DNA of 64,000 nucleotides from an uncultured Candidatus Saccharibacteria bacterium (GCA_964594415.1 CAZQLQ010000003.1:6224-70223), one strand, 5' to 3'; positions 26,451 to 48,792 are shown, counted from the stretch's first letter. A program made the numbers and translations. Notes: generated by a model from the sequence alone, not told the origin.

Positions 26451-26873
26451 TCAAGAAGTCACTATTTCAGTAAGTTTTTTTATGCTCCAATCAAAATCGC
26501 TATTCTTTTCTAACCAAAGGCCAATAACGCTAACTCCCTTAGGAACTCCCCAATCGTTGGCAATCAATTCACACGATTCGTTAAGCTCAGAGATTTGAGC
26601 TTCATCGGAAATCGGATTTTTCGCACAATCTTGATGTGCGATTACTACTACATTAGTTGAACTATGACCGCTTACTGATATACTGACCTCTTCCTTAAGA
26701 TTTTCTACAACTTCCTTGACACCTTTAGTTATCACATTGGTTGGACCCGCAACATTGACAGCGTCAACAAATTCAACACACAGTTCTTTTTTTATCCAGT
26801 CGCTTACTGGTTTTTGAGTTCTTCCATCGATACAATTAATCATTGTTGCAAAATGTAAATTACTATGAGACAT
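26451..26873 (-). CDS. Small beta-carbonic-anhydrase-like protein (CxDxR ... HxxC zinc motif), putative
   Basis: NCIDGRTQ and AHQDCA match the two beta-CA zinc-ligand motifs. Only 140 aa. It starts 8 nt after the atpC stop, so it is likely co-transcribed with the atp operon. Confidence 0.35.
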   Translation of the reverse strand: MSHSNLHFATMINCIDGRTQKPVSDWIKKELCVEFVDAVNVAGPTNVITKGVKEVVENLKEEVSISVSGHSSTNVVVIAHQDCAKNPISDEAQISELNESCELIANDWGVPKGVSVIGLWLEKNSDFDWSIKKLTEIVTS

Positions 26874-26881
26874 ATTTCTCC

Positions 26882-27336
26882 TTAATCATTTAATTCTCTT
26901 GCTTTTTGTCCGTGCTTTCTTTTGATCCCAGAGTGCTTAGTAATTGCTTTGAGCTGAGCTGCAATGCGTATAAGCTCTGCTTCTGATTCTGCGAACAACT
27001 CCTTGTTGGCAATTGCTTCTGCCAAAGCCTTTTCTGCAGCTTTCTTGGCCCCAAGTACTTCTGCCTCATTAAGTTCATGGATATGCTCTGCAGCATCCGC
27101 AAGCACGATCACTTTACTTCCTTCTTTTATATGCACGAAACCTCCATAAAGAAGAGCAATTCTCTCATCATCCTTTGACCTTACGATAATCTCTCCTGGA
27201 CTAATTTCGGCAACAAGAGGAACATGGTTTGGTAGCACCGTAATTTGTCCTGTTTTAACAGGTAAAATCACCTCTTTGACCTCTTCTTCAAACAAGGTTC
27301 TCTCAGGGGTTATGACTGACAAATAAAGTTTAGACA

Positions 27337-27337
<1 letters not shown>
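26882..27337 (-). CDS. atpC: F1Fo ATP synthase epsilon subunit
   Basis: Epsilon beta-sandwich N-terminus (LSVITPERTLFEEEVKEVILPVKTGQITVLPNHVPLV) plus the helical C-terminus. Confidence 0.9.
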
Positions 27338-29530
<2,193 letters not shown>

Positions 29531-31039
29531 TTATTTGTCTCCACTCTTTTTGCTTACTTTTTCAAGACTCTTTATGAGTGCCTTCTCAACTTCTTCAGAA
29601 ATATCTAAATCTCGCTTGAAAGCCGTTAAATAGTCTTTGTTCCCATTTAATTCATTCAGTAAATTTTCTTCAAATCCTCTAATGTCCTTGACTTCGATCT
29701 CATCCAGATACCCATTCGTTGCCGCATAGAGAATGGCAACCTGGCCCTCTACGGCCATCGGTTGATACTGGTCCTGCTTTAAGACCTCAACAATTCTTTT
29801 ACCGCGTTCGATTTGTTTTTTGGTTTCTTCATCAAGGTCAGAAGCAAATTGAGCAAACGACTGTAGTTCACGATATTGTGCAAGTTCAAGCCGTATCTTT
29901 CCTGCAACTTTTTTAATAGCTTTTATCTGAGCCGATGAACCTACACGAGAAACCGATAATCCAACATTTAAAGCAGGACGAATGCCCTGATAAAATAGAT
30001 CTGATTCAAGGTATATCTGACCATCCGTAATAGAAATTACGTTTGTAGGAATATAGGCAGACACATCGCCAGCTTGTGTTTCTATTATTGGCAACGCGGT
30101 AATGGAACCACCACCATACTTCTCATCTCTCCTGCAAGCACGCTCAAGAAGTCTTGAATGAAGGTAGAAAACATCACCAGGATATGCTTCTCTTCCCGGT
30201 GGACGCCTAAGCAGAAGTGAGATTTCTCTATAAGCCCAAGCGTGTTTGGACAGATCGTCATAGATGACTAGCACATCTTTACCTTGATCCATAAAATATT
30301 CTGCAATTGCGACTCCTGCATAAGGAGCTATAAAAAGAGAAGGCGCAGAATCAGAGGCGGAAGCATTTACTACTATAGTGTTTGCCATAGCCCCATTTTC
30401 TTCAAGCTTTGATACTATCCTAGCAACCTTTGAATTCTTTTGGCCAATTGCTACATAAACACAAATTACACCCGTGTCTTTTTGATTAATGATCGTGTCA
30501 ATTGCAATTGCGGTTTTTCCCGTTTGACGGTCCCCAATAATCAGCTCTCTTTGTCCACGACCAATCGGGATTGCCGCGTCGATCGCCTTAATCCCTGTTT
30601 GAAGTGGGACGTTTACTGATTTACGCTCGATAACGCCAGGCGCAATTCTTTCGACGGGGTAAGCCTTATTGCTTGTTATACTACTCTTACCATCTATAAC
30701 GTTTCCGAGTGCGTCTACTACGCGTCCAATTATATTATCTGAAACCGGAATCTCTAAGATTCTACCGGTACAGCGAACTTCGTCACCTTCCTTAATCCTC
30801 TTTGAATCTCCAATAATAACAATTCCTACATTATCTTCTTCGAGATTAAAAGCAATGCCATAAATACCGTTTTCAAACTGGACCATTTCAAAAGACATCG
30901 CATCGTGTAGGCCAATAGCCTTAGCAACGCCGTCACCAACAGTTACAACCTTTCCTATCTTGTAAGAACTTGCTGATGGTTTATAGCTTTTGAGTTGTTC
31001 TTCAATTTTTTGTAATAAAATGTCTCTATTTTCCTGCAT
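29531..31039 (-). CDS. atpA: F1Fo ATP synthase alpha subunit
   Basis: Walker A GDRQTGKT; 502 aa. Confidence 0.95.
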
Positions 31040-31041
31040 AA

Positions 31042-31437
31042 TTATACCTCTACACCCATTTTTGTCTGTTTAATAAGATCCGTAAGCTGGCTAACCCTAT
31101 TCCTTAAACTATTGTCTATAACCGTTTCACCCATTCTTATTATTACTCCGCCTAAAAGATCCTCGTTTATGAAATAAGTAATTTCCAGCTTCTGATTGGA
31201 TTTTTTTTCTAAAACTCTTTCTATTAGACTTTTTTGCTCATTTGATAATTCACATGCACTTGTGACTGTGATATATCCTTCTTTAAATTGCTTTTCTAGG
31301 GATAGCCTTTTTACCAGTGATTCTGCTTTTCTTGGATATCTTTGTACAACCCTCTTAGCAAAACGCTCAACAAGTTTTGGGTCCTCGTCCTCTGCAACTA
31401 GTTTCAATATTTTCGAGATATCTAAATTTATCGCCAT
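31042..31437 (-). CDS. atpH: F1Fo ATP synthase delta subunit (short, 131 aa)
   Basis: Position between atpF and atpA, with OSCP/delta-like helices. Shorter than the typical 175-180 aa. Confidence 0.75.
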
Positions 31438-31439
31438 AT

Positions 31440-31943
31440 TTACGCTTTCTCAATAAACCCTGCCAACGCTTCATTTATCAAGGCGTCGTCATATTTCTTG
31501 GTGTTACTTTTAAGCAAAGAGATTAGGGATTCTTCAACTAGTTTGGCAATATCATCCTTAGTGTCATTTATGATTTCTTTTTTCTTTTTTGCGCCTTCTA
31601 TTTCCGCGTTTTGAAGAATTGCTTTTGCATTTGTTTCGGCTTCAAACTTAGCGTTTTCGTTTATCAACTTAGCCTCTACCCTCGCTTCATCAATAATTTT
31701 TGAGGCTTCCGTCTTGGCACTTAAGATGACTTCCTCTTTTTTCTTTTCTATCTCGTCATATTCTCTAGCTATCTCGTCTGCCTTCTTCAAGCTCTCTTCA
31801 ATCTTTGAAGTCCGCGCATCCAAGACGTTCATCACAGGCTTATACAAAAATTTCCAAAGAATCAAGAGAAGCAAGCCGAAGTTCAATCCCTGCGCAATCA
31901 GAGATGCCGTATCTATACCTAATTTTTCAAATATAGCTCCCAT
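31440..31943 (-). CDS. atpF: F1Fo ATP synthase subunit b
   Basis: Single N-terminal TM helix followed by a long charged helix. Confidence 0.85.
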   Translation of the reverse strand: MGAIFEKLGIDTASLIAQGLNFGLLLLILWKFLYKPVMNVLDARTSKIEESLKKADEIAREYDEIEKKKEEVILSAKTEASKIIDEARVEAKLINENAKFEAETNAKAILQNAEIEGAKKKKEIINDTKDDIAKLVEESLISLLKSNTKKYDDALINEALAGFIEKA

Positions 31944-31951
31944 ACGAGCTC

Positions 31952-32197
<246 letters not shown>

Positions 32198-32214
32198 TTA
32201 CTTAACTTAATATA

Positions 32215-32961
32215 CTAATGTGCATCATGTGACATAGTGGCCATCGAAAAGAATACGAGTGCCAGCATCGTAAACACAAGCGCTTGGATAAAACCTACAA
32301 AAATCTCCATAATATAGAATGGCACCGGAATGATGTATGGCGTGATTACTCCCAAAACAACCAGTAATACTTCGCCTGCAAATACGTTACCAAAAAGCCT
32401 GAATGCAAATGAGATAATACGAGTAATTTCTGAGACTAACTCTAGGATACCGACAAAAAAGTTAACGGGACTAGAAAAATTTAAAAATTTCTTACCGTAC
32501 TTAAACATGCCGATAGCGGCTATCCCAAGGACCTGGGAGGCAAAAACCACAATAACCCCAAGAGCTACAGTAGTATTTAGATCAGCTGTCCCAGCACGAA
32601 AAATAGGAACTAAGACTTCTTTACCCTCAGAGTTCAGTTCATAAACTCCTATCGATCCAACCCCCGGAATTAAACCGAACCAATTATTGAAAAGTATAAA
32701 GATGAAAAAGGTCGCAATCATCGGAAATATTTTTCGAGCAAATGTCTTGTCTCTTATAATGCTATTCGTAAGATTAAATAACATCTCAATCCCAAGCTCC
32801 ATCACATTTTGTAGCCCCCTCGGGATAAGATTAATCTTCCTGGTTGCAGAAAAAGAAATCAACGAAAGAAAGACCAAAACCACAAACGTCGTAAACATGC
32901 TATTTGTAATCGTAACGGATCCTATTTCCATAAGTGGATTGGCGGTAATAGAAACATGCAT
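32215..32961 (-). CDS. atpB: F1Fo ATP synthase subunit a
   Basis: Subunit-a signature with the essential Arg (RLFGNVFAGE) and five TM helices. Confidence 0.9.
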   Translation of the reverse strand: MHVSITANPLMEIGSVTITNSMFTTFVVLVFLSLISFSATRKINLIPRGLQNVMELGIEMLFNLTNSIIRDKTFARKIFPMIATFFIFILFNNWFGLIPGVGSIGVYELNSEGKEVLVPIFRAGTADLNTTVALGVIVVFASQVLGIAAIGMFKYGKKFLNFSSPVNFFVGILELVSEITRIISFAFRLFGNVFAGEVLLVVLGVITPYIIPVPFYIMEIFVGFIQALVFTMLALVFFSMATMSHDAH

Positions 32962-33209
32962 TATTCACCATCCTTCATTTTGTCGATTGATTTTTTGATA
33001 CCATAAAAAGAAGTAATTAATGATAAGCCTATACCGGAAAAAAGAAAGATATGTCCCGCACTAAATCGCTTGTCTAGCCAAACTCCTAAAACTACAAAAA
33101 ATACTAATGGCAAGCTTATCCGAAAGCCAATTTCTAAAAAGTATCCGTATACATTAAAATCTTTTTTCATACTCAAAATCCTAAATTTTTCAATACAAAA
33201 ATGCGTCAC
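32961..33209 (-). CDS. AtpZ/AtpI-like small membrane protein preceding atpB
   Basis: 82 aa with two TM helices in the usual atpI/atpZ position. The start may be the internal MKKDF. Confidence 0.55.
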   Translation of the reverse strand: MTHFCIEKFRILSMKKDFNVYGYFLEIGFRISLPLVFFVVLGVWLDKRFSAGHIFLFSGIGLSLITSFYGIKKSIDKMKDGE

Positions 33210-33315: not shown

Positions 33316-36300
33316 CTATTTAATTTCTTTTTCAAGATCGACTAATATTTTACGAGATTCTGCATTATTTATTAATTTATCTGCCTTTAGAAGCTCAAAA
33401 TAACGATTTCCCTCGTCATATATATAGACATAATCTTCTGCCTCTTCTAGCTTTAGTTTTCCGAGTAATGATAAAAACTCTTTACTAATTGCATCTTCGG
33501 TACTGTTTTCTTTTTTTGATAAGGATACAAGATAATTGTTCAGTAACAAATCCGTATTATGCCTAAAAATTTTCGGATTTTCTGGATTTAACTTTTCTGG
33601 AGATTTCCCCGTCCCAGCACCGGTGTTAGTTTCTGCCGCTTGTTGACCGCTCGGCGTGCTTGACTGTTCAGAAGAACCGTCTTCTGATGGCTTCTCTTTC
33701 TCCCATGAAACCTTTATATCTTCTGAGTTTTTATTTGTATTTCTTTCCCTTAAGGCCAATATAGGTTCCACATTTATTAACGTAAAGACGCCTTCAGGCG
33801 TAACGCTATAATCATCATCTTTAAGACCAGTGGTTTTAAGGAATTCTGCGAATTCTCCAGATTTGCCTAGAATCTCCTCTTTTGAAATATTATTGTTAAC
33901 CCAGTTGCTTTCTGAAGTAATAATCTTATCTGTTTCGCTAGTTTCTTCTTTCTCAACATTGGGTCCCGTACCCTCGCCTGTTCCTACCGGCTCAGGGCTT
34001 TCTCCCGATGGACCTTCTGGAGTTGGCGTTGGGGTAACTGGGGGAACTGGTTCTTCTTTCTTCCCCACATTCTCTAGCGGGTTTCTACGGAATGGCATAA
34101 TAGGAACATAGAATTCGCTATCTCTAGGCATCTCAAGAGTATAATCAAAAGCTTCTGGATTCGTTACCGTTACAGTATCGACACCCTTTCCTTCAGCTGT
34201 CGCTAACATTCTAACCAGATCATGGATCTGTCCGTCTTCTCCTTTTCGTCCGCCTATAACCTGAGCTACTTCGGCAAAGCGACCCTTAAAGACCACCTGT
34301 CCATCGTGGTTTTCAAAAAACATCTGTGCGAGAGGGCTATCTTTTGGAATAATTGCCTGCCCGTTTTTATCGAACTCAACTGAAGCTACATAGCGCTGCG
34401 TTTCTTCCGAAAGCGATAGGTTAAGCTTCAGATTATGGTTCTTTATTTCCTCAAGGTAATCCGCGCTCAACTCATCATGAAATGAGCCGTCAGATGTCAT
34501 ATGAGATACATCATAAACAAAGTTGCCGTTAGCATCTATGCCTAATCTTAACTCTTTTTCATTTAGTTCATAAATTCCGGAGGTATTTTCGTCATACCAT
34601 CCTCGCGGATCCCTAAATACTCTTTCAAATTCTGGTCTGTGTGATATTGCATCAATATCGGTATAAGTAGTGACTTCTCCCGACCCCTCTACTGGAGCAG
34701 TAATTAAATTGATACCTTCTTTATGAAGCATTTCTACCGTTGAAGGCGATAGAGAGCCATCGTTGTTGAATATAATGTGATCTGCTACCAGTTCGCCGGT
34801 CATTTTATTTGTTAAACTAAGTGTTCCTTCTTGATTTTTGATCAGTGCAAGTCCTTCAGGTAGATTAATTGTCGTGGATCTCCCTACTGAAACTTGATTT
34901 AAGACATCAGGATTTACTCCCAATGTTTTATCGCCTTCAAGAGAAAATGCGGTTCTATGGAAAAATGAAGTAAAATCACTATCGCCAATATAATCCGCAA
35001 ATTCATGAACAGCCCCCCCTACGATGCCCATAGTTGTAGCTGCTATAAAGCCAGCTTTCACGGCCTCTATTTTCTTAAATCTGTCTCGTTCTCCTATTTT
35101 TTGCGTATTTTCGCCCAACAAACCAGCTTTGGCATTATTAATCTTATTTCTTAACTCATTGGTGAAATTACTGCCTTCTGGAAGATTTTCAATGAGCGCT
35201 TCTTCAGCTTTGGCAACAGCTTCGTCTAAAGCATTTCTCTCTCTTTGGTTAAATATTCTTGAATAAGTAATATAAGGCGCGTCATATTCGTCGCTAGCTT
35301 CTATTCTTGCCCTTATATCAACAACTTTTTCCGTCAAAATCTGCCTCAGCTCAGGACTTAATTCTCCCTTACTTAGAATCTCGTTAATTTCTGTAACCGA
35401 AGAATTGGAACTTTTTCCTTCTACTCTGAACTGTTCCATTCTTTCGCGACCCTTAGAGCCAGATAAAATCTCTCCTCCTGCCTCCATTTCACGAGAGTGC
35501 ATAGCAAAGTCTCTCTCAACCTCCTTGCCCTTTCTGGCGACACCGTAAGCAAAGCCTAATAACGATGAGGCTCCGAGTGTTCCTATTTTTGCAGCGTTGC
35601 TTCTAACTAATCTTTCAGTAGTGAAAGTAGCTGCGGAATAAATCAATCCAGCCGCTATGCCTATAGTTGCAGGCTCTAGTGCAGAACTCCAAAATCTGCT
35701 TTGCTGTAGCCCTTCAACAAATTTGTCAAAACCGTTTAAATTTTCTTTGGCTCTTAAATTGCCTCGAACATTGCCTAAAATAACCGAGAAATCCATGTCT
35801 AGTTCGGAAAGAGCTTTTTCGTGATCTTGACTTCCTTTGATACTATCGGCAACTTCAAGAAGATTGTCAACGATATCTTCTTTTTTAAACATTAATTTCC
35901 TATCTTTAATATATGCGGAGTCCAGTAGTTCAAACTTTATTTTCTCAAAAGCGTTTTCGTCTATTTCGCCATTCACATAATGTTTTATAAGATCTTTAAT
36001 GCTGTTGTTAAAATCCTCGTTTGCTTCTTCCCTGTTTTCGCCATAGTGTAGAGCCTCGTCGGCACTTGTAGCCAATCTTTCAGCAGCAGCTTTTCTGTCC
36101 TCTTGAAACTCTTCATTCTTATCAAGTGAACCGCTGTTAATTTGCTCTCTATATTTGTTGATGGCCTTTTGTCTTTCATATTCCTCAAATACTCGCCAAT
36201 ACATTCTTCCAAAGATACCTCTTATGCCCTTCTCTCTTATTTTATTTTGTTCTTTGGTAATTTCTTTGTCTGCATAATATCTTGCCACATCTTCATTGAT

Positions 36301-36915
36301 TTCTTTGGCATCAACAGCATAAAGAGGGGTTTTTTTAGCCTCATCCTCGGCTTCGTTACTTTCGGCTTCCTCTAGTTTCGTTGTTGGGTTTTCATTATCT
36401 TGCCCCTGCTGTTGTTTATCTTCTGATTGCTGCTTATTGGTGTTTTCGATGCCTTGCTCTTCCTGAAGACGATCTATAAAAGTTTGCATACGCTCACCCT
36501 GAAGTTCGTCTTCCGTTTTTTGAGTATTGGAATTACTTGATGACTGCTCTTCCTGAAGACGATCTATAAAAGCTTGCATACGCTCACCCTGAAGTTCGTC
36601 TTCCGTTTTTCCGACAGCGGAAGTATCAGACAGTTTCTCCTCGGGAACGGGTTGCGCATAACCTTCGCTTACCGGATCAATATCCTCGTAATCAATAGGT
36701 TGGTAGCCATAATGTTCACTTGATTTATTATCTTCATCTTCGTCAATATAGTCTATTGGCTTATATCCCTTTTCTTTCTCATTGGCAATACCATAGGCAA
36801 TCTTAATATATTCGTCGCCTTCAGGCTCTGGTAAAATATTTTTTACCAGATCTTCATTTGATGGAGCTTTTTGCTCACCAGAAAAGGCCCCTGGGTTATT
36901 ATTCATCTCGCTCAT
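33316..36915 (-). CDS. Giant hypothetical protein (1199 aa): acidic N-terminus with GYxPIDY repeats, a 30-aa tandem repeat, mid-protein TM helices, a large C-terminal domain and a PVTPTPTPEGP linker
   Basis: One uninterrupted ORF. Hydrophobic helices at roughly residues 430-470 and 640-660. A Pro/Thr-rich linker near residue 960. No recognisable catalytic motif and no N-terminal signal peptide. Confidence 0.6.
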   Translation of the reverse strand: MSEMNNNPGAFSGEQKAPSNEDLVKNILPEPEGDEYIKIAYGIANEKEKGYKPIDYIDEDEDNKSSEHYGYQPIDYEDIDPVSEGYAQPVPEEKLSDTSAVGKTEDELQGERMQAFIDRLQEEQSSSNSNTQKTEDELQGERMQTFIDRLQEEQGIENTNKQQSEDKQQQGQDNENPTTKLEEAESNEAEDEAKKTPLYAVDAKEINEDVARYYADKEITKEQNKIREKGIRGIFGRMYWRVFEEYERQKAINKYREQINSGSLDKNEEFQEDRKAAAERLATSADEALHYGENREEANEDFNNSIKDLIKHYVNGEIDENAFEKIKFELLDSAYIKDRKLMFKKEDIVDNLLEVADSIKGSQDHEKALSELDMDFSVILGNVRGNLRAKENLNGFDKFVEGLQQSRFWSSALEPATIGIAAGLIYSAATFTTERLVRSNAAKIGTLGASSLLGFAYGVARKGKEVERDFAMHSREMEAGGEILSGSKGRERMEQFRVEGKSSNSSVTEINEILSKGELSPELRQILTEKVVDIRARIEASDEYDAPYITYSRIFNQRERNALDEAVAKAEEALIENLPEGSNFTNELRNKINNAKAGLLGENTQKIGERDRFKKIEAVKAGFIAATTMGIVGGAVHEFADYIGDSDFTSFFHRTAFSLEGDKTLGVNPDVLNQVSVGRSTTINLPEGLALIKNQEGTLSLTNKMTGELVADHIIFNNDGSLSPSTVEMLHKEGINLITAPVEGSGEVTTYTDIDAISHRPEFERVFRDPRGWYDENTSGIYELNEKELRLGIDANGNFVYDVSHMTSDGSFHDELSADYLEEIKNHNLKLNLSLSEETQRYVASVEFDKNGQAIIPKDSPLAQMFFENHDGQVVFKGRFAEVAQVIGGRKGEDGQIHDLVRMLATAEGKGVDTVTVTNPEAFDYTLEMPRDSEFYVPIMPFRRNPLENVGKKEEPVPPVTPTPTPEGPSGESPEPVGTGEGTGPNVEKEETSETDKIITSESNWVNNNISKEEILGKSGEFAEFLKTTGLKDDDYSVTPEGVFTLINVEPILALRERNTNKNSEDIKVSWEKEKPSEDGSSEQSSTPSGQQAAETNTGAGTGKSPEKLNPENPKIFRHNTDLLLNNYLVSLSKKENSTEDAISKEFLSLLGKLKLEEAEDYVYIYDEGNRYFELLKADKLINNAESRKILVDLEKEIK
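36456..36610 (-). repeat. 90-bp in-frame tandem duplication (two copies) encoding TEDELQGERMQ(A/T)FIDRLQEEQ
   Basis: gctcttcctgaagacgatctataaaag(t/c)ttgcatacgctcaccctgaagttcgtcttccgttttt occurs at 36456..36520 and again at 36546..36610 (period 90 bp). Confidence 0.8.
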
Positions 36916-36918
36916 TTT

Positions 36919-37212
36919 CTACCCCAAGTACTTCTGTCTAAATTCCACAAGAAGATTAGCTGTAAATTGTGGATAGTTTGAAATATTATTTTTGAAGAAG
37001 TTTGATATTTCTTCCGGAGAGCTCTCGCTCATTTTACTAATTTCGTCCAATTTATCCTCCGTAAGAGCCTCTAGAGATTTTGCTATGAAAAAATTATTTA
37101 GTCGCTCCTCGAGATCAGATTTCATTTGGTCCCTCATTTCTGCTGGTAACTTTTGGCTTAATCCGCGCTCCTCCATCAGGAGCTCAAGATAATCATTTAT
37201 TTCTTTATTCAT
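36919..37212 (-). CDS. Small helical cytoplasmic protein (97 aa), translationally coupled to the giant protein gene
   Basis: GAGGGG SD upstream of the ATG at 37212. Its stop lies 3 nt before the start of the 1199-aa ORF. Confidence 0.55.
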   Translation of the reverse strand: MNKEINDYLELLMEERGLSQKLPAEMRDQMKSDLEERLNNFFIAKSLEALTEDKLDEISKMSESSPEEISNFFKNNISNYPQFTANLLVEFRQKYLG

Positions 37213-37329
37213 TTTCCCCTCACTTTAAACTCTGTTTAAATTATATTCTCTTGAAAATTTCAGTCAACGACTTCTACAATGCCAATTAATCAATAACTAA
37301 AAGTGATTTCATTATAATGAAACAACGGA

Positions 37330-37755
37330 TTAAAAAATATTTTTCCAATCAATGTAAGCACCGCCGATAAAAGACCCCGCCTGTTCGCTCTTAATGGATT
37401 CAGATATTACATACCCCCCAAGAAGCAGTGAGATTATTATAGTGATAGAACCTAGAACTATTCCAGCTATGGCAAATGCTTTTTTATTTGACTTTACCGT
37501 CATAGTCCCAAAAACGATAGATAGAATACCGATAATCAGACCTACAGGCGGATAGATCCAAGCAACTATGCCAAGAATTCCCAAAACAAGCGAAGCAATA
37601 GCTTTCCCTCCTCCTTCTGGAATAGGAGCAGTAGATGGTTCATTTTGACTTACTTCGGACGTCCCCCGAGTCGCTGTATTTACTACCGGTGCCCCGCAGT
37701 TGCCGCAGAAAGATGCCCCCGCATCAAGCTCTTGTCCACATTTAACACAGTTCAT
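37330..37755 (-). CDS. Zinc-ribbon plus DUF4190 membrane protein
   Basis: N-terminal CVKCG...CGNCG zinc ribbon, a Pro/Ser linker, then two TM helices of the DUF4190 type (IASLVLGILGIVAWIYPPVGLIIGILSIVFG). Confidence 0.6.
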   Translation of the reverse strand: MNCVKCGQELDAGASFCGNCGAPVVNTATRGTSEVSQNEPSTAPIPEGGGKAIASLVLGILGIVAWIYPPVGLIIGILSIVFGTMTVKSNKKAFAIAGIVLGSITIIISLLLGGYVISESIKSEQAGSFIGGAYIDWKNIF

Positions 37756-37785
37756 TGTCCTCCTCTATAACCTTTTATATGTATT

Positions 37786-38607
37786 TTACAGCTTTTTACC
37801 ACAATATTCACAGAATAAACTCTTGTTTATGTTTTTACGACCGCAATATCTACAATAGTTATTTCTACCCGAGATGCTAATACCCTCTCTTCTGTCACTA
37901 TCATTGGATAAAATATAAAAAACAAAAAGCCCCGCCGCTAAAAGCAAAGTAATAATCAGAGAAACAAGCAGAAAAAATAATATTTGGGAGTCCAACCCAA
38001 AATTATATAAAGCATGCATAATGGTCACAGATAATAGCGCAAGAATAGTACTTAAAAAAGAATTGTTATCAATTTTCTTTTTAGCAAAGAAGAAGCCTAC
38101 AGCAGCCGTACTAGCACCATGAAAAATAGGAACCGTTATTGCTCTTAGTATTCCAACTTCTGGACCATAAATAAATGTATAAGTAAGGTTCTCAAACAAA
38201 CCAAAGGTCAATCCGCAAATAGCAAAATAAATAATCCCGTCATTATGCTCATTAAAATATTTTTTATTATAAATGTATAAAGCTAGTGGCAAAAATTTCG
38301 CAAATTCCTCAATCGTACCAACAAACACAGACTTTACTAAAATAACCTGGATAATATCAGCAAAACTTCTGGACCATAAATCAGTCAGATACTCCACTCC
38401 AACAGAAAGCATTATTGCAAAAATTCCAAAAGCAAATGCCACCCATAAGGCTCCAATCGGTTCTTTGGGCCCCCTGTCATGGGAAACTAAATACCAAATT
38501 AACGTAGCGAAGATTACTAGAAATATTAAAGTCACTATGCATAACATATAAAAAATAATAACATAATTCATTAATCTTTTTTCGCAAAAAATAATATTGT
38601 CAAACAA
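37786..38607 (-). CDS. PrsW-family intramembrane protease with a C-terminal zinc ribbon
   Basis: PrsW motifs EEFAKF, FENLTY and FHGASTAAVG, with multiple TM helices. C-terminal CRYCGRKNINKSLFCEYCG ribbon. Confidence 0.65.
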   Translation of the reverse strand: MFDNIIFCEKRLMNYVIIFYMLCIVTLIFLVIFATLIWYLVSHDRGPKEPIGALWVAFAFGIFAIMLSVGVEYLTDLWSRSFADIIQVILVKSVFVGTIEEFAKFLPLALYIYNKKYFNEHNDGIIYFAICGLTFGLFENLTYTFIYGPEVGILRAITVPIFHGASTAAVGFFFAKKKIDNNSFLSTILALLSVTIMHALYNFGLDSQILFFLLVSLIITLLLAAGLFVFYILSNDSDRREGISISGRNNYCRYCGRKNINKSLFCEYCGKKL

Positions 38608-40373: not shown

Positions 40374-41378
40374 ATGGAAGAACTACTTCAAAAAATCAAA
40401 AAGGCAAAACTTGTGGGTAGAGGGGGTGCAGAATTTCCAACTTATAAGAAGTGGGAAATGGTACGTTCTGCTCTTAGTGATAAAAAGTTTGTTATATGCA
40501 ATGCTAGCGAAGGCGAAATTGGTATATATAAAGATATCTGTATTCTAAATAATTACCCTGAGAGAGTCATGGACGGCATCATTCTAGCCCTAGACTTTTT
40601 GGAAGCCAACGAGGCCTATATAAACATCAACAAAAAATACTGGAAACAAGTCAAACAAAAATTTACACCAATTATTAATAAATATGAAATTTTAGGATAC
40701 AAAATAAATATTTTCGAAGAAGATCCCAGCTATATCGGCGGTGAAGAAACGGCTCTACTAAATGCAATCGAGGGACACAGGACTGAACCCAGACTGAAAC
40801 CACCTTTTCCGTCTGAAGTAGGACTGCACGGCCATCCAACGCTTATCCATAACGTAGAAACGCTCTATAACATCTCCTTAGTTAATGATGGATTATATAA
40901 GAATAACCGTTTTTATTGTATATCTGGTAAGGTAAAAAAACCTGGCGTGCACGTACTTTCAGAAAATCTGACTATTGCGGAAATATTAGATAAAACTGGA
41001 AATACTCCAAAATTTAATTTTTTTGTTCAAATTGGCGGAAGTGCTAGTGGACTAGTGCTGAACCAAGACCAGATAAAAAATCAGAGAATGATTGGAGCAG
41101 GTTCAATAGATGTTTATCCGATTTCAACTCCCCCTCGCTATATGTTTGACAAATGGTTTGATTTTTACCAAAAAGAGAGTTGTGGGAAATGCACCCCTTG
41201 CCGCGAAGGAACTTTTCAGCTTTATAAGATGGTAAAGGAAGAATGTGAATCCGACTTGAAATCAATGCTTGAAATAATAGAACTAATGGAAACCGCCTCT
41301 TTCTGTGCCTTAGGCAGGTCAATAGCAATTCCCGTAAAAAGTTATATCAAAAATGTTTTAAATTACAGAAAAAAGTAA
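40374..41378 (+). CDS. NuoF / HydB-like NADH-binding flavoprotein subunit (short, 334 aa)
   Basis: GRGGAEFPTYKKW NADH-site motif, GGEETALLNAIEG FMN-site motif, and the C-terminal 4Fe-4S CGKCTPCREG. Lacks the N- and C-terminal extensions of bifurcating HydB. Confidence 0.7.
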   Translation: MEELLQKIKKAKLVGRGGAEFPTYKKWEMVRSALSDKKFVICNASEGEIGIYKDICILNNYPERVMDGIILALDFLEANEAYININKKYWKQVKQKFTPIINKYEILGYKINIFEEDPSYIGGEETALLNAIEGHRTEPRLKPPFPSEVGLHGHPTLIHNVETLYNISLVNDGLYKNNRFYCISGKVKKPGVHVLSENLTIAEILDKTGNTPKFNFFVQIGGSASGLVLNQDQIKNQRMIGAGSIDVYPISTPPRYMFDKWFDFYQKESCGKCTPCREGTFQLYKMVKEECESDLKSMLEIIELMETASFCALGRSIAIPVKSYIKNVLNYRKK

Positions 41379-41379
41379 T

Positions 41380-43092
41380 ATGAAAAAAGAATATATACAA
41401 ATTGACGGTAAAAAGTATGAGTTCAGGACAGGAGAGTCTGTTCTTCAGGTCGCTATCCGAAATAACATTGATATCCCTCACTTCTGCTATCATGAAGATC
41501 TGCAGACAGAGGCACGATGCAGAGCTTGTTTAGTCGAAAACCTAAAAGACAATAAAATTGTTACTTCCTGTACCCTACCTGCCAGGCATTTATTAAAAGT
41601 TTCGACAAAAGGAAAAACGTTAGAAAAATTAAGAAAAGAAAACCTAGAATTACTTCTTGCCAGCCATAAAGAAAATTGCTCCAATTGCAAGGCTGGATAC
41701 TTCTGCAAAACAGCAGAGGAAATGAAGAAATACAAAATCTCAGGAACAAAGTATAAAAAACAAAAAATTAATAAACCAGTTCATAAGATGGCGACTGCTG
41801 CAGAAATAGATCCAAATACCTGTATCGCCTGCAATAAATGCGTACAAGTATGCCAAAGAGTTGGCATAGGCTTCCTTGAATTAAAGGAAAAGGGATCGCA
41901 TACACATTCTAGCTATAACGATAACGCGAGTATTGATTGTATATATTGCGGACAGTGCACACTACATTGTCCCGTAAATGCAGCCCGTGAACAGTCTCAA
42001 ATAAAAGAAGTCGAGGCAGCAATAAAGGATAAGAAAAAAATAGTAATCGCCCAAGCGGCCCCCTCTATCCGTGCTTCTATCGGGGAAGAATTTGGGTGCA
42101 AACCAGGAAAAGTACTCACAGGACAGATGTATACCGCTATGAGAATGCTGGGCTTTGATAAAATCTTTGATGTTAATATGGGTGCAGATATTACAACCAT
42201 CGTTGAGGCAAAAGAGCTTGTTGAAAGAATAAAGACAGGTAAAAATCTGCCAATGTTTACTTCTTGTTGCCCGGGATGGGTAAAATTTGTTGAATTTTAT
42301 CACCCTGAATTAATCCCAAATCTGACTACCTCAAGGTCCCCCCAAATTCATGCAGGTGCTGCATATAAAACATGGTGGGCAAAAAAGGAGAATATAGATC
42401 CCAAAAACATAGTAGTAGTTTCTATCATGCCTTGCACTTCAAAAAAATATGAAGCAAAAAATCCAGATTTGAAGGTTGAAGGAAATTTTCCCGTTGATTA
42501 TGTCCTCACAACCCGTGAATTCGCATCATTGCTTAAGAAGAATAATATCAATTTGCCAAAACTAACTCCTAGCAAGGTTGATATTTATGGTGAATATTCA
42601 GGCGCTGCTGCTATTTATGGGGCATCCGGAGGCGTAATGGAGTCAGCTCTTAGAACTGCTTACTTTGATATGACCAGAGATGAACTGAAAAAAGTTGACT
42701 TTGAAACCGTAAGAGGAATGGATGGCATTAAAAAAGCTGAAGTAAAAATTGGGAACAGAACCATCAAAGTAGCTGTCGTGACGACACCCAAAAACGCTCG
42801 CTTAATTATCGGGGAACTAAAAGAAAACCCGAAGGCCTATGACTATATAGAAGTCATGGCTTGCCCTGGAGGTTGTATCGGTGGGGGTGGACAGCCTATT
42901 CCTACTACTGACAAGATTGTTATGGAAAGAATAAAAGCCCTTTACCAAATTGACTCCAAATCTAAGATTAGAAAAGCACACCTCAATCCGGTAGTTGAAG
43001 ATTTTTTCAGGGATTATGTCGGTAAACTGCCCAGGGAAAAACAGATCGAAATTCTTTACAGAGGATACTCACCAAAGAAAAAATTTGAATAG
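41380..43092 (+). CDS. hydA: [FeFe]-hydrogenase catalytic subunit HydA (monomeric CpI-like architecture)
   Basis: N-terminal 2Fe-2S ferredoxin cysteines, two 4Fe-4S motifs (CIACNKCVQVC and CIYCGQCTLHCP), and H-cluster motifs L1 FTSCCPGW, L2 MPCTSKKYE and L3 EVMACPGGCIGGGGQP. Confidence 0.85.
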   Translation: MKKEYIQIDGKKYEFRTGESVLQVAIRNNIDIPHFCYHEDLQTEARCRACLVENLKDNKIVTSCTLPARHLLKVSTKGKTLEKLRKENLELLLASHKENCSNCKAGYFCKTAEEMKKYKISGTKYKKQKINKPVHKMATAAEIDPNTCIACNKCVQVCQRVGIGFLELKEKGSHTHSSYNDNASIDCIYCGQCTLHCPVNAAREQSQIKEVEAAIKDKKKIVIAQAAPSIRASIGEEFGCKPGKVLTGQMYTAMRMLGFDKIFDVNMGADITTIVEAKELVERIKTGKNLPMFTSCCPGWVKFVEFYHPELIPNLTTSRSPQIHAGAAYKTWWAKKENIDPKNIVVVSIMPCTSKKYEAKNPDLKVEGNFPVDYVLTTREFASLLKKNNINLPKLTPSKVDIYGEYSGAAAIYGASGGVMESALRTAYFDMTRDELKKVDFETVRGMDGIKKAEVKIGNRTIKVAVVTTPKNARLIIGELKENPKAYDYIEVMACPGGCIGGGGQPIPTTDKIVMERIKALYQIDSKSKIRKAHLNPVVEDFFRDYVGKLPREKQIEILYRGYSPKKKFE

Positions 43093-43184: not shown

Positions 43185-45248
43185 TTATATGGCTATAAGC
43201 CCCACAAGGAGTAAGGCAACAATGTTTAAGATTTTGATCATTGGATTTATAGCAGGACCAGCAGTGTCTTTGTAAGGATCGCCAACAGTATCTCCTGTTA
43301 CTGCGGCCTGGTGAGCAAAAGAACCCTTTCCTCCATAATTCCCTTCTTCGATATATTTCTTTGCATTGTCCCAAGCCCCACCGCCTGAGGTCATTGAAAT
43401 TGCAACAAATATACCAGTTACTATAGATCCTACGAGGAGTCCGCCCATCATTTTAGCACCGGCTTCGACCCCAATAAATCTACCGATAATTACAACTACC
43501 ACCGGAGCAAGAACAGGGATAAGTGCAGGAACAATCATCTGACTAATTGCAGATTGTGTAACAATATCAACACATTTTCCATATTCAGGTTTTTCTTTTC
43601 CGCTCATTATTCCTTTGATTTCCTTGAACTGCCTTCTAACTTCTTCAACTACAGAACCAGCTGCCTTCCCGACAGCTTCCATCGAAAGTGCGCCAAATAC
43701 GTAAGGAAGCATCCCCCCAAAAAACAAGCCGACAAGCACATAGGGGTCTGATAAATTAAATTGGATATCCACCCCTTTCTTAACCAATTCTTCTACAAAA
43801 GCCGAGAAAAGTACTATTGCAGCAAGGCCGGCTGAAGCAATAGCATAACCCTTAGTAACAGCCTTTGTAGTATTGCCTACCGCATCAAGTGGATCGGTAA
43901 TGTCTCTAACTTCTTTAGGAAGTTCAGCCATTTCTGCTATACCACCCGCATTATCAGTAATAGGACCATAGGCATCAATCGCAATTATTATTCCAGCCAT
44001 TGAAAGCATACTCATTGCCGCAATCGCAACTCCATAAACCTCCGCCATCGTGTAAGCTATTAAAATACCAATACCGATCAAAATAACTGGATAAGCAGTA
44101 GATTTCATACTAACTGCAAGGCCTGTAATTATATTTGTGCCGTGACCACTTTCTGAGGACTTGGCAATTGACCTTACCGGTGCGTACTTGGTAGAAGTAA
44201 AATACTCGGTAATTATTACCATTCCAGCTGTAACTACCAACCCCACAAGAGTACAGATGAAAATATCTCTGGTAGCATAGGTGTCATTTCCGTCCATCAT
44301 ATTAAAAGTAATGAAATAAAAAACGACAGCCGAAAGAACAGCTGATGCCCCAAGTCCCTTGTAAAGAGCGTTCATTATGTTTTTATCTTTTCCAAGTTTG
44401 ATGAAATAAACCCCGATAATAGAAGCAACTATAGAAGCACCGCCAAGTACTAATGGATACAAAATTGCATTTTCATAATTTGGCATGATCTGGCTTGCAA
44501 GCAGAATTGCTGCAACTGCAGTAACTGCATAGGTTTCAAAAAGATCTGCGGCCATACCGGCACAATCACCAACATTATCACCAACGTTGTCAGCAATAAC
44601 AGCTGGGTTGCGAGGATCGTCCTCAGGAATACCAGCTTCGATTTTACCAACGAGATCAGCCCCTACGTCAGCTCCTTTTGTAAATATTCCCCCGCCAAGT
44701 CTAGCAAATATAGATATAAGGCTTCCACCAAAACCAAGTCCAACTAAAGCTCCTACGCTTTTAGTCGGATCCCATGTTTCCGAAGCCATAAGTAGCGCTA
44801 AAAATCCCGAAACTACCAAAAGAGCTAGACCAACAACCATAAAGCCTGTTACCGTCCCGCCCTTCACGGCAACATCAAGAGCTTTTTTCATTCCGTGCCT
44901 TGCGGCTTCGGCAGTCCTTACGTTTGCCTTTACTGAAACATTCATCCCGATATATCCCGCCAAGGCAGAAGCAGCTGCACCCAACAAAAAACCAAATGCA
45001 GTATATTGCCCAATTTCTGTCTTGAATCCTAAAGCAAATAAAAGTACGGCAAACACAGCTACCGCAACATAAAAGATAGTTCTGTATTGTCTATTCAGAT
45101 AAGCTTTTGCACCTTCCTGAATTGCTGAAGCTATTTGCTTCATTTTTTCGTTTCCTTCGTCCTGTTTTAGCACCCATAGGATCAGATAAACCCCATATAG
45201 GATAGCAAGGACCGAAGACAAGAGAGCATAGATCAAATAATAACTCAT
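43185..45248 (-). CDS. hppA: Membrane-bound H+(or Na+)-translocating pyrophosphatase
   Basis: 687 aa with about 16 TM helices and the conserved [17 protein letters not shown] and DNVGDNVGD motifs. Confidence 0.95.
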
Positions 45249-47600: not shown

Positions 47601-48066
47601 CAATTTCTTTGTTACTTCCTTGTTTACAAGGCTGCTTTTTTGTTGAGCGAAAAAAGAATATATTTATTATTGATGCTATTAACGAAGGAACGCCAAAAAT
47701 TAAATAATAAATCCCATATATATAACCTACCAATCCGGACCAGTCACCAAAGCTAGCACATATCTTTATAAAAACTAAAAGAATAAGTAGAATCAGGACA
47801 TTTAAGACCAAAGACAAATAAACTGCATGCTTGATTTTTTCTTCATGTCTTTCATATAAGTAAGTTTCTAAAAGAGTCATAACAATAAATACAGCAATAG
47901 CACAATAAATCAATAATGACGAATCCATTTCAATAACTGGACATATGAAATTGATGGCTACAAAATAAATCGAGATAAAAGAAATTCCAAATAAACCGGA
48001 AGAAACTAACTTAGCCCAACTAAAATTAGCAGTTTTTCTTTTTTTATTTAATTTTGTTTTGCTCAT
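47518..48066 (-). CDS. Polytopic membrane protein, hypothetical (182 aa). The last 27 codons are encoded by repeat copy A.
   Basis: Four or five TM helices. The N-terminal KKRK motif is shared with the 48324..48770 paralog. Confidence 0.5.
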   Translation of the reverse strand: MSKTKLNKKRKTANFSWAKLVSSGLFGISFISIYFVAINFICPVIEMDSSLLIYCAIAVFIVMTLLETYLYERHEEKIKHAVYLSLVLNVLILLILLVFIKICASFGDWSGLVGYIYGIYYLIFGVPSLIASIINIFFFRSTKKQPCKQGSNKEIEKAYKVARYLVTFLFLLTLIFLYVTFK

Positions 48067-48103
48067 CTTCCATCTTCCCTCCTCATAAGCAAATTTTACA
48101 CAA

Positions 48104-48218
48104 AAACCAGCCCAAAGTCACGAGAAAAGGAATATTATTTGAAAGTTACATATAAAAAAATTAGAGTTAACAAGAATAAAAAAGTTACTAGATATCTAGC
48201 AACTTTATATGCTTTTTA
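48104..48218. repeat. About 115-bp direct repeat, copy B (noncoding, upstream of gene 47518..48066)
   Basis: Near-identical to 47486..47600. In the gene frame it carries an in-frame stop before the repeated 26 codons, so here it is a dead 3' gene fragment. Confidence 0.85.
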
Positions 48219-48323
48219 AATTTATTATTGTCATTCCTTCTGATGCTTCTCTCTCCTTGAGTTTATGAAAATTATATTTATTACAGATTCCGTTTAAGTC
48301 CTACAAACAACTTAATAAATTAT

Positions 48324-48770
48324 TTATTGCCTTATTTTAGTCAATCCTCTCCAACTCATGAAAGAAGAATAAATGAATAACGGGGCAATAATAAAAATTA
48401 CCCTTATATAGTAAGACCATAATATGGAATATATAGTATTATTTAGATTACTAGTATTTACGATTTCATACAGACTCAAAGCAAACACGATTAAATAAAA
48501 AATGAATAAAAGCTTTGAGATAAATACCCTTATTAAAGGATTAAAGATACTAAAAGTAAAAATGAAAAAATTGATTATTAGAAAAATAAAAAATATTAAT
48601 TTTTGTAAGCAACCATACTGATAGAATAAAGAGTACACAAAAGAAGTAGCCATTAATATTGGCACATAAGAAATAACAAAAAAAACCCCTGAATAATTAG
48701 TAACCTTTTTATTTCTTTTCTTTTTTATTTTTATCTTTGAAATATTTTCCACAACAAAATAATAGCACAA
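48324..48770 (-). CDS. Polytopic membrane protein, hypothetical (148 aa), in a very AT-rich segment
   Basis: Hydrophobic throughout. Lys-rich N-terminus (KIKIKKKRNKK) resembling that of the 182-aa neighbour. Confidence 0.4.
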   Translation of the reverse strand: MCYYFVVENISKIKIKKKRNKKVTNYSGVFFVISYVPILMATSFVYSLFYQYGCLQKLIFFIFLIINFFIFTFSIFNPLIRVFISKLLFIFYLIVFALSLYEIVNTSNLNNTIYSILWSYYIRVIFIIAPLFIYSSFMSWRGLTKIRQ

Positions 48771-48792
48771 GAAAACTTAAAATGTGAGCATC

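Follow-up and report, generated by a model that had tools for sequence, protein, structure and literature searches.

The stretch of DNA analysed here, called the window throughout, comprises 64,000 nucleotides (nt) from an uncultured Candidatus Saccharibacteria bacterium (GCA_964594415.1 CAZQLQ010000003.1:6224-70223). On its minus strand lies a pair of genes encoding a protein of 97 amino acids (aa) and a protein of 1199 aa, the latter (hereafter the giant) being the product of the longest open reading frame (ORF) in the window. An earlier note, made from the sequence alone, had described these two ORFs as an operon with 3 nt between the genes, and in ORFs, spacing and rank of the giant it was right (the junction reads TAG-AAA-ATG). 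The small protein is acidic (isoelectric point, pI, 4.6) and all-helical; the giant has a pI of 4.65, zero Cys residues and a hydrophilic N-terminus; neither has a signal peptide. The pair, in which the giant joins a variable N-terminus to a conserved core and a C-terminal cassette that can be exchanged, represents a two-gene module found throughout the Patescibacteria. Its features are as follows.

36919..37212, minus strand: ORF of the 97-aa partner, a DUF5663-family protein and putative cytoplasmic chaperone or adaptor of the giant's core (from Pfam PF18908, a partner profile and adjacency)
33316..36915, minus strand: ORF of the 1199-aa giant, stop codon included
37240..37267, minus strand: best sigma70-like match, TTGACT-16-TATAAT (11/12), ~28 nt 5' of the 97-aa gene
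36394..36915, minus strand: non-conserved acidic N-terminal extension with GYxPIDY repeats, aa 1-174, outside the stretch matched by homologues
36455..36610, no strand assigned: two 66-nt direct repeats (36455-36520 and 36545-36610) from a repeat search, encoding a duplicated 22-aa unit
35701..36393, minus strand: conserved helical domain A, aa 175-405 (alignments; AlphaFold2, AF2, pLDDT ~85-95)
35536..35688, minus strand: conserved pair of weakly hydrophobic helices, aa 410-460, with a short basic loop between them (AF2 confidence low)
35071..35508, minus strand: conserved helical domain B, aa 470-615 (alignment, AF2 model)
34996..35070, minus strand: third semi-hydrophobic helix, aa 616-640, in which G629/G633 (GxxxG) and E638 are conserved, its N-terminal flank basic and its C-terminal flank acidic
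34132..34914, minus strand: beta-rich domain, the most conserved module, aa 668-928
34072..34104, minus strand: boundary motif PIMPFRRNPLE, aa 938-948, family consensus PPxIPxxxRxPLE (alignments)
33319..34071, minus strand: variable C-terminal cassette, aa 949-1199, consisting of a PVPP...PEP linker and ~220 aa with no recognisable domain

The conserved core of ~780 aa runs, in order, through helical domain A, the two hydrophobic helices, helical domain B, the third helix and the beta-rich domain, and ends with the PPxIPxxxRxPLE motif, after which the identity shared by close relatives breaks down. Outside this core lie the acidic N-terminal repeats, the 22-aa duplication and the PVPP linker, and the last ~220 residues of the window giant are not conserved and are poorly predicted. 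The GYxPIDY repeats are present as first described, two of them at aa 50-62 and 70-80 and a third, partial one at 85-93, as is the Pro/Thr linker (PVPPVTPTPTPEGPSGESPEP, aa 956-976). A "perfectly duplicated 30-aa unit" had also been reported; the duplication is real, but its unit is a 22-aa core, KTEDELQGERMQ(A/T)FIDRLQEEQ (aa 103-124 and 133-154), which matches at 21/22 positions and recurs with a 30-aa period. (At the DNA level the 66-nt units are identical at 65/66 positions and lie 90 nt apart, their 8-aa spacers differing; this 90-nt-period duplication is overlooked by Tandem Repeats Finder.) Similarly, what had been taken for a C-terminal domain of ~500 aa is a composite of the beta-rich domain, the boundary motif, the Pro-rich linker and the ~220 non-conserved residues.

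Word-indexed homologue searches return only one or two relatives of the giant and make it look, falsely, like an orphan. An exhaustive phmmer search against 1.84 billion representatives corrects this picture, yielding 665 proteins at E<=1e-3 and 322 at E<=1e-30, where the 665 family members are counted as representatives at 50% identity. These relatives range from 680 to 1990 aa in length, and all match the query over aa ~175-960. The window giant is itself matched along the full length of the core, including the PxxxPxxxRxPLE motif and the invariant or near-invariant residues of the beta-rich domain (W773, D775, T778, N785, E786, S811, S834, Q840, G878, E882 and T906), as expected of a member of a new family. 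Loci taken from species-representative genomes all belong to metagenome-assembled genomes of Patescibacteria (Minisyncoccia, Paceibacteria and Saccharibacteria), and with 665 representatives spread across that group the giant can no longer be called lineage-specific. Two bins (L008 and L013) are labelled "uncultured Gammaproteobacteria" yet carry a Patescibacteria-type module; these labels are probably a binning or taxonomy error.

The absence of a recognisable family motif in the giant, also remarked on at the outset, holds up. Searches of Pfam, NCBIfam, PHROGs and PADLOC give zero matches, and searches of the PDB, both with the single sequence and with a 56-sequence profile, give nothing below E 0.2; the core is fold-novel, with no match to a described sequence family or solved fold. 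A confident match of that kind had been named as one possible refutation of an undescribed system, and an assembly artefact as another. The latter objection fails as well: the ORF is full length, and the closest relative of the giant (P0004, 45% identity) keeps the same 3-nt junction and has a partner (in L015) that is 51% identical to the 97-aa protein (BLASTP E 3e-36). Neither of two more specific identities fits the giant. As an extended VirB6 or TrbL, that is, a polytopic channel of a type IV secretion system (T4SS), it should have at least five strong transmembrane (TM) segments, whereas it has three weak segments and no Pfam match; as an S-layer protein or adhesin it should combine a signal peptide or wall-anchoring motif with recognisable Ig, FnIII or SLH repeats, a combination that it does not show. 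Scans of the window protein and 16 relatives with Pfam and NCBIfam detect no trafficking domain or secretion signal (Sec signal peptide, TPS, PAAR, LXG, WXG or Rhs). No paper with DUF5663 in its main text came up in our literature search, in keeping with the proposal that the system is undescribed, and the obligate pairing of DUF5663 with the giant family is, as far as that search goes, unreported.

The linkage between the two genes marks them as a dedicated pair. The sample consisted of 60 loci, of which 58 have a giant ORF and reduce to 49 non-redundant clusters, and it was scored with home-built hidden Markov models (HMMs). A DUF5663 homologue is adjacent to the giant and on the same strand in 40 of the 40 non-redundant clusters having flanking DNA (the remaining clusters end too soon), which answers affirmatively the question, raised earlier, whether homologues of both genes co-occur in related genomes. 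The partner is 5' of the giant in 37 of these clusters, with gaps mostly between -29 and +42 nt (L014, at 179 nt, and L019, with a frameshifted copy, are included), and 7 nt 3' of it in the other three (L003, L007 and L028). Even in L001, the first distant locus, the giant homologue has directly 5' of it an ORF whose product is homologous to the 97-aa protein (BLASTP 1e-9). In L019 (9686-10000) the DUF5663 gene beside P0007 is split by the frameshift, its N-terminal half lying in one frame and its C-terminal half (...FRDKYLGK) in another, through either an assembly error or pseudogene formation. A second, longer DUF5663 paralogue (138-146 aa) is found 410-486 nt 3' of the giant gene in L044, L048 and L054.

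The window's own small protein scores below the Pfam gathering threshold for DUF5663 (PF18908), with 19.6 bits where 23.7 are required (E 1.4e-3, model positions 1-77 of 84). Its membership is secured by its orthologues and by a reciprocal profile match, since 10 of 10 orthologous partners pass the gathering score (25.3-51.1 bits) and a profile built from 12 partner proteins matches the 97-aa protein at E 1.3e-33. No other Pfam match was obtained for it, including to the type III secretion system (T3SS) class II chaperones, with their tetratricopeptide repeats (TPR), or to the Eag (DUF1795) chaperones of type VI secretion systems (T6SS). We know of no function assigned to the DUF5663 family. 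Sequence divergence gives some indication of what the partner goes with: over 561 locus pairs, which share phylogeny and are not independent, so that the coefficients are descriptive only, partner identity follows core identity (Spearman rho 0.75) and not tail identity (rho 0.08). Because its identity tracks the core, the small protein belongs with the core and is not a tail-matched immunity protein, a role that was considered for it and rejected on these grounds. The same covariation, together with the invariable adjacency and shared orientation, makes "dedicated chaperone or partner", as the earlier note had put it, the best reading, and DUF5663 would thus most plausibly be a cytoplasmic chaperone or adaptor for the core.

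Beyond the boundary motif the family behaves quite differently. The relatives P0030 and P0044 share 95-100% identity as far as about residue 800, beyond which it drops to 15-20% over tails of ~520 aa; the same tail swap is seen between P0057 and P0061 (82% core identity) and between P0139 and P0143 (72%). In P0057 the break falls at residues 801-838, which bracket the conserved motif at 819. All three pairs thus display a conserved N-terminal part, unrelated tails and a sharp breakpoint between them. Judged from sequence, such swapping of cassettes at a fixed motif is the genetic signature of polymorphic toxins and effectors, that is, of proteins that face a host or a conflict. Several of the tails can be recognised. 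A module resembling glycosyltransferases of the GT-A type (with IP..E..NI, SNDAD and GGY..ED motifs) is carried by 91/147 (62%) of full-length representatives, with weak matches to PF00535 and PF13641; P0025 and P0071 end in Ser/Thr kinases (Pkinase, E 8e-26 and 7e-24), and P0008 in a calpain-type cysteine protease (Peptidase_C2, above gathering score). Membership of glycosyltransferase family 2 / GT-A would call for a GT-A module with a DxD motif, and the window protein has no match either to an HMM of the GT module derived from the family or to any GT in Pfam. Downstream of the giant there is no systematic immunity gene, the next genes being RecG or RNase R, convergent at 3-48 nt, or in the window the atp operon; this fits host-directed rather than kin-directed action. 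Taken as a whole, the evidence firmly establishes that the module is real, that its two genes are strictly linked, and that it belongs to a large undescribed Patescibacteria family whose core is fold-novel and whose C-terminus swaps cassettes.

How the giant relates to a membrane is a more delicate matter. Three hydrophobic stretches (~aa 410-431, 441-460 and 616-640) do occur in the middle of the protein, as had been pointed out. Their hydrophobicity maxima (KD19) are 1.24, 1.11 and 1.49 for helices 1-3, with family medians of 1.29, 1.36 and 1.54, and the yardstick used was a set of 91 TM peaks from the resident membrane proteins of the same window (median 2.07, 10th percentile 1.53). Because all three maxima of the window giant are below that 10th percentile, the description "membrane-spanning" is not established. 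The position and hydrophobic character of the three segments are nonetheless kept across the family, including the GxxxG in helix 3. Flanking charge is net positive before helix 1, in the helix 1-2 loop (basic, with zero acidic residues), after helix 2 and before helix 3, and negative after helix 3, the flanks of which go from +2.7 to -2.6. In the AF2 model helix 3 is part of a continuous 60-residue helix. Weak helices of this kind fit, by analogy, what has been published on secreted TM proteins and the chaperones that go with them: the TM segments of membrane proteins secreted by the T3SS and the type IVB secretion system (T4BSS) are semi-hydrophobic, evading the signal recognition particle (SRP), and cognate chaperones shield them (Krampen et al., PMC6110835). 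Likewise, Eag chaperones stabilise the TM domains of polymorphic T6SS effectors, domains that are implicated in crossing target membranes (Ahmad et al., PMC7773334).

The cassettes of relatives constrain the topology further. Between the beta-rich domain and the cassette there is no TM segment: 180 of 190 tails lack a KD19 value above 1.6, and none reaches 2.0. An additional TM helix that would return the kinase and GT modules to the cytoplasm was considered and rejected, none being found in the tails. The beta-rich domain must therefore share one compartment with cassettes that depend on ATP or on nucleoside diphosphate (NDP)-sugars, and since kinases and GT-A enzymes need these substrates that compartment must be a cytoplasm, whether the producer's or that of a target or host cell. 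A simple surface-displayed ectodomain is argued against by the same reasoning, and the earlier note's "surface protein" becomes doubtful, the kinase, GT-A and calpain-like protease of relatives lying beyond the last helix with no TM segment between.

Across the loci the recurrent neighbours of the pair are SMC or FtsH on the 5' side and RecG or RNase R on the 3' side, mostly housekeeping genes, and to judge by this gene order the module is chromosomal and probably vertically inherited. Three unrelated metagenomic loci have, directly 5' of the pair, a VirD4/TraG-like coupling ATPase (L004:4492-7227, L017:7106-9640 and L019:7104-9632) with T4SS-DNA_transf, TrwB and TraG-D_C domains (DUF8128 is also listed for L017 and L019). 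The association of such type IV coupling proteins (T4CPs) with the pair is a lead, not a rule: they adjoin it in ~3/25 loci with at least 3 kb of 5' sequence, and as an obligate third component the T4CP was rejected for that reason. The ATPases of these three loci may be among the "orphan" T4CPs of the Patescibacteria T4SS literature, where 5,713 VirD4-like T4CPs were counted with only 148 near virB4 and exaptation was suggested (Quinonero-Coronel et al., PMC12102498). T4SS-pilin/TrbC genes are found near the pair in L001, the most distant locus. There, at L001:1-9203 and 14288-15913, the neighbours are fusions of T4SS_pilin/TrbC-like proteins with Big_2 domains, together with a Glyco_hydro_114 protein and a surface protein of the Cna_B type, a surface- or pilus-rich setting that is not seen in the window.

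The only functional data that our search turned up concern Southlakia epibionticum ML1 and come from tables supplementing Wang et al. (Cell 2023, PMC10633639). The sole DUF5663 genes of this organism are SEML1_0162 and SEML1_0163, both of them core and Patescibacteria-enriched, and they lie directly 3' of, and on the same strand as, an unannotated gene for a 767-aa protein, SEML1_0161. Transposon sequencing (Tn-seq) in co-culture, as tabulated there, places SEML1_0161 and SEML1_0162 in essential class II (GD/ES/ES) and gives SEML1_0163 as NE/GD/GD; the structure-based annotation of SEML1_0163 (Table S2) lists trigger-factor-C-terminal-like and LTXXQ (CpxP/Spy-like) chaperone folds. The giant-then-small order of Southlakia is also that of L003, L007 and L028, and the longer DUF5663 paralogues 3' of the giant in L044, L048 and L054 resemble the SEML1_0162/0163 arrangement, so that SEML1_0161 is a plausible orthologue of the giant.

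The reading that we put forward, tentatively and at somewhat less than even confidence, is one of chaperone-assisted export followed by insertion of the semi-hydrophobic helices at the host interface, there to deliver or present the cassette. By analogy with the secreted TM proteins mentioned above, DUF5663 would be made in step with the giant's core through the 3-nt gene junction and would hold the semi-hydrophobic helices in solution and out of reach of SRP/Sec targeting. Once the giant had been exported, these helices would enter a membrane where episymbiont and host meet, and the C-terminal cassette, thus presented or delivered, would act in the cytoplasm of the host. That cassette would be a GT-A glycosyltransferase, a Ser/Thr kinase or a cysteine protease in relatives, and in the window member a domain with no assigned activity. 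We infer the physical binding of the two proteins, the export, the insertion in a host membrane and the delivery of the cassette from the gene-level evidence above. We rather doubt a bolder form of the proposal, in which DUF5663 and the giant make up a hitherto unrecognised, Patescibacteria-specific self-inserting translocation platform: the chaperoned giant would fix its semi-hydrophobic helices in the host membrane and bring interchangeable enzymes (kinases, glycosyltransferases, proteases) into the host cytoplasm, its export perhaps powered by the orphan VirD4-like ATPases that abound in these genomes.

A number of observations count against export and delivery. No secretion signal or export machine has been identified for the giant, T4CP and T4SS genes are absent from the 64-kb window, and the coupling ATPase adjoins the pair in few loci elsewhere. 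The housekeeping synteny suggests vertical inheritance, which is unusual for effectors. AF2 gives low confidence on the helix 1-2 hairpin, and the charge pattern at helix 3 is equally expected of a resident N-in/C-out anchor. Among the tails, the HopA1-like and YkuD-like matches are sub-threshold (below gathering score), and the window giant's own cassette has no recognisable enzyme, so that the role of this particular member depends on the function of the core. Finally, that SEML1_0161 is a family member is plausible from gene order only.

The strongest rival, which we consider possible though we lean against it, keeps the giant at home as a scaffold on the cytoplasmic face: its helices, forming a re-entrant hairpin or lying peripherally, would do no more than tether it to the producer's own membrane from the inside, every soluble domain (beta-rich domain and cassette included) would be in the producer's cytoplasm, the cassette enzymes would regulate or build the cell's own components, and DUF5663 would be a regulatory or assembly subunit. 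Such an arrangement accounts well for the lack of a signal peptide in either protein, for helices too weakly hydrophobic to be typical TM segments, for the cytoplasmic look of the basic helix 1-2 loop with its lack of acidic residues, for the embedding of helix 3 in a continuous 60-residue helix, and for kinase and GT-A modules that need ATP or NDP-sugars and are separated from the beta-rich domain by no TM segment; the housekeeping synteny and the essentiality of the likely orthologue would also be expected of it. What it explains poorly is the exchange of unrelated cassettes between near-identical cores, which typifies conflict and host-interaction proteins and not housekeeping scaffolds. 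Also against it, the change in flanking charge at helix 3 is that expected of a true membrane crossing, the hydrophobic character of all three segments and the GxxxG are kept across the family, and the T4CP neighbour recurs.

A resident protein could instead use helix 3 as an N-in/C-out signal anchor, with the beta-sandwich domain and the tail displayed as an adhesin or cell-contact protein and DUF5663 acting as a cytoplasmic partner of the N-terminal domains. The flanking charges suit this arrangement, but it is unlikely: it would put the Ser/Thr kinase and GT-A modules of relatives, which are on the same side as the beta-rich domain, outside the cell where there is no ATP or NDP-sugar, helix 3 is less hydrophobic than resident anchors of this genome usually are, and a Pfam scan found no wall-anchoring motif such as SLH or LPXTG. 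A conserved core that bears variable enzymatic C-termini and is encoded in a two-gene unit is likewise what one might see in an intracellular conflict or defence system, in which the core would sense an invader (e.g. a phage), the variable enzyme would be the effector and DUF5663 a regulator or antitoxin-like inhibitor. This we regard as very unlikely indeed, as PADLOC and PHROGs give no match, the synteny is with conserved housekeeping genes and not with defence islands, no NTPase or nucleic-acid-sensing domain was found in the core, and a wide, apparently vertical distribution with likely essentiality would be atypical of defence.

Comparison with known systems suggests that the module may apply the logic of a chaperone plus polymorphic effector to an entirely new core, the resemblance being one of organisation with no homology to Eag-prePAAR pairs, T3SS/T4SS substrates or glycosylating toxins. 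The T6SS prePAAR/Rhs effectors with their Eag (DUF1795) chaperones (PMC7773334; PMC12881460) also have a small chaperone gene beside a large polymorphic effector, TM helices thought to insert in the target membrane and an exchangeable toxin at the C-terminus whose site of action is the target cytoplasm, and Eag too goes with the conserved part of the effector rather than with the toxin. The genomes considered here, in contrast, have no T6SS, and the giant has no PAAR, Rhs or prePAAR motif; its helices are in mid-protein rather than N-terminal, no immunity gene follows, and the all-helical DUF5663 is unrelated to Eag proteins by Pfam. The T3SS and T4BSS TM substrates and translocators with chaperones (SseF-SscB; SipB/IpaB, class II; PMC6110835; PMC9993115) are similar in having semi-hydrophobic TM segments below the SRP-targeting range, a small acidic chaperone encoded immediately 5', and a helical domain with a hydrophobic hairpin. 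Patescibacteria, however, have no injectisome, DUF5663 has no TPR- or CesT-like match, and the giant is 2-4 times larger and carries a beta-rich domain and a cassette.

With the polymorphic toxins (CdiA, Rhs, LXG, MafB), a class of systems reportedly defined by Zhang and colleagues in Biology Direct in 2012, the giant shares a conserved N-terminal part and a short demarcating motif, followed by unrelated C-terminal domains in close relatives. It differs in having no 3' immunity gene or recognised trafficking domain and a housekeeping chromosomal context, and its family's cassettes are kinases, GT-A enzymes and proteases rather than nucleases, deaminases or pore-formers. Large clostridial toxins of the TcdA/TcdB type and MARTX toxins are giant chains with GT-A and cysteine protease domains and a weakly hydrophobic helical "delivery" region, and the giant family likewise combines GT-A, cysteine protease and weakly hydrophobic helices. 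The order is reversed, with the enzymes C-terminal in the giant, no sequence or fold similarity was detected, and to our knowledge the large clostridial toxins have no partner chaperone. Within Pfam, the closest connection is DUF5663 itself, a Patescibacteria-enriched core family that aligns with the 97-aa protein over almost the full model.

Patescibacteria (the Candidate Phyla Radiation, CPR) account for a large share of bacterial diversity and are obligate episymbionts, and how they manipulate or draw on their hosts is largely unexplained. A very large family is now defined among them with no Pfam model, solved relative or literature of its own, paired obligately with a Patescibacteria-enriched DUF that thereby gains its first functional context, and a rationale is offered for the unexplained orphan T4CPs. 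The hypothesis is directly testable, as SEML1_0161 to SEML1_0163 belong to a genetically tractable Saccharibacteria member and are flagged essential. Were the translocation-platform proposal true, the module would provide the first candidate, at the molecular level, for the means by which ultrasmall episymbionts gain access to their hosts and reprogram them, and epibiotic growth would be impossible without it, as the Southlakia Tn-seq of SEML1_0161 and SEML1_0162 suggests; were the giant a resident scaffold, the module would still be phylum-wide, probably essential and a new piece of CPR cell biology.

In the window, a complete-looking operon for an F-type ATP synthase (26451-33209, minus strand; genes atpI-like, a, c, b, delta, alpha and others) starts 106 nt 3' of the giant, and the 106 nt between the giant and the atpI-like gene contain no terminator-like hairpin, which makes transcriptional read-through from the pair into the operon possible. 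As promoter-like sites in the region do not exceed shuffled expectation in total, the sigma70-like match 5' of the pair is suggestive only. Immediately 5' of the pair, at 37330-38607 (minus strand), are genes for an intramembrane protease of the PrsW family (273 aa, C-terminal zinc ribbon) and for a membrane protein of the zinc-ribbon/DUF4190 type (141 aa). PrsW, the zinc-ribbon/DUF4190 protein and the atpI/ATP synthase operon were each considered as parts of the system and rejected, none of them recurring beside the pair in other loci. The gene set of the window (dnaK/dnaJ, ftsH, murJ, lepA, ATP synthase, H+-PPase, FeFe hydrogenase and comEC, at ~37% GC) is consistent with a Patescibacteria organism. 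A NuoF-like protein and an [FeFe]-hydrogenase large subunit with ferredoxin-type domains (40374-43092, plus strand), adjoined by a membrane H+-pyrophosphatase (43185-45248, minus strand), form a fermentative energy module typical of CPR genomes. Lastly, an 893-aa protein (48793-51474, minus strand) combines a Sortilin/Vps10-like segment with an alpha/beta-hydrolase (lipase) domain of the LCAT/PGAP1 type; its gene lies in the lowest-GC part of the window (a dip to 0.285 at 48001-50000), and the protein may be a secreted lipase or acyltransferase that acts on host lipids.

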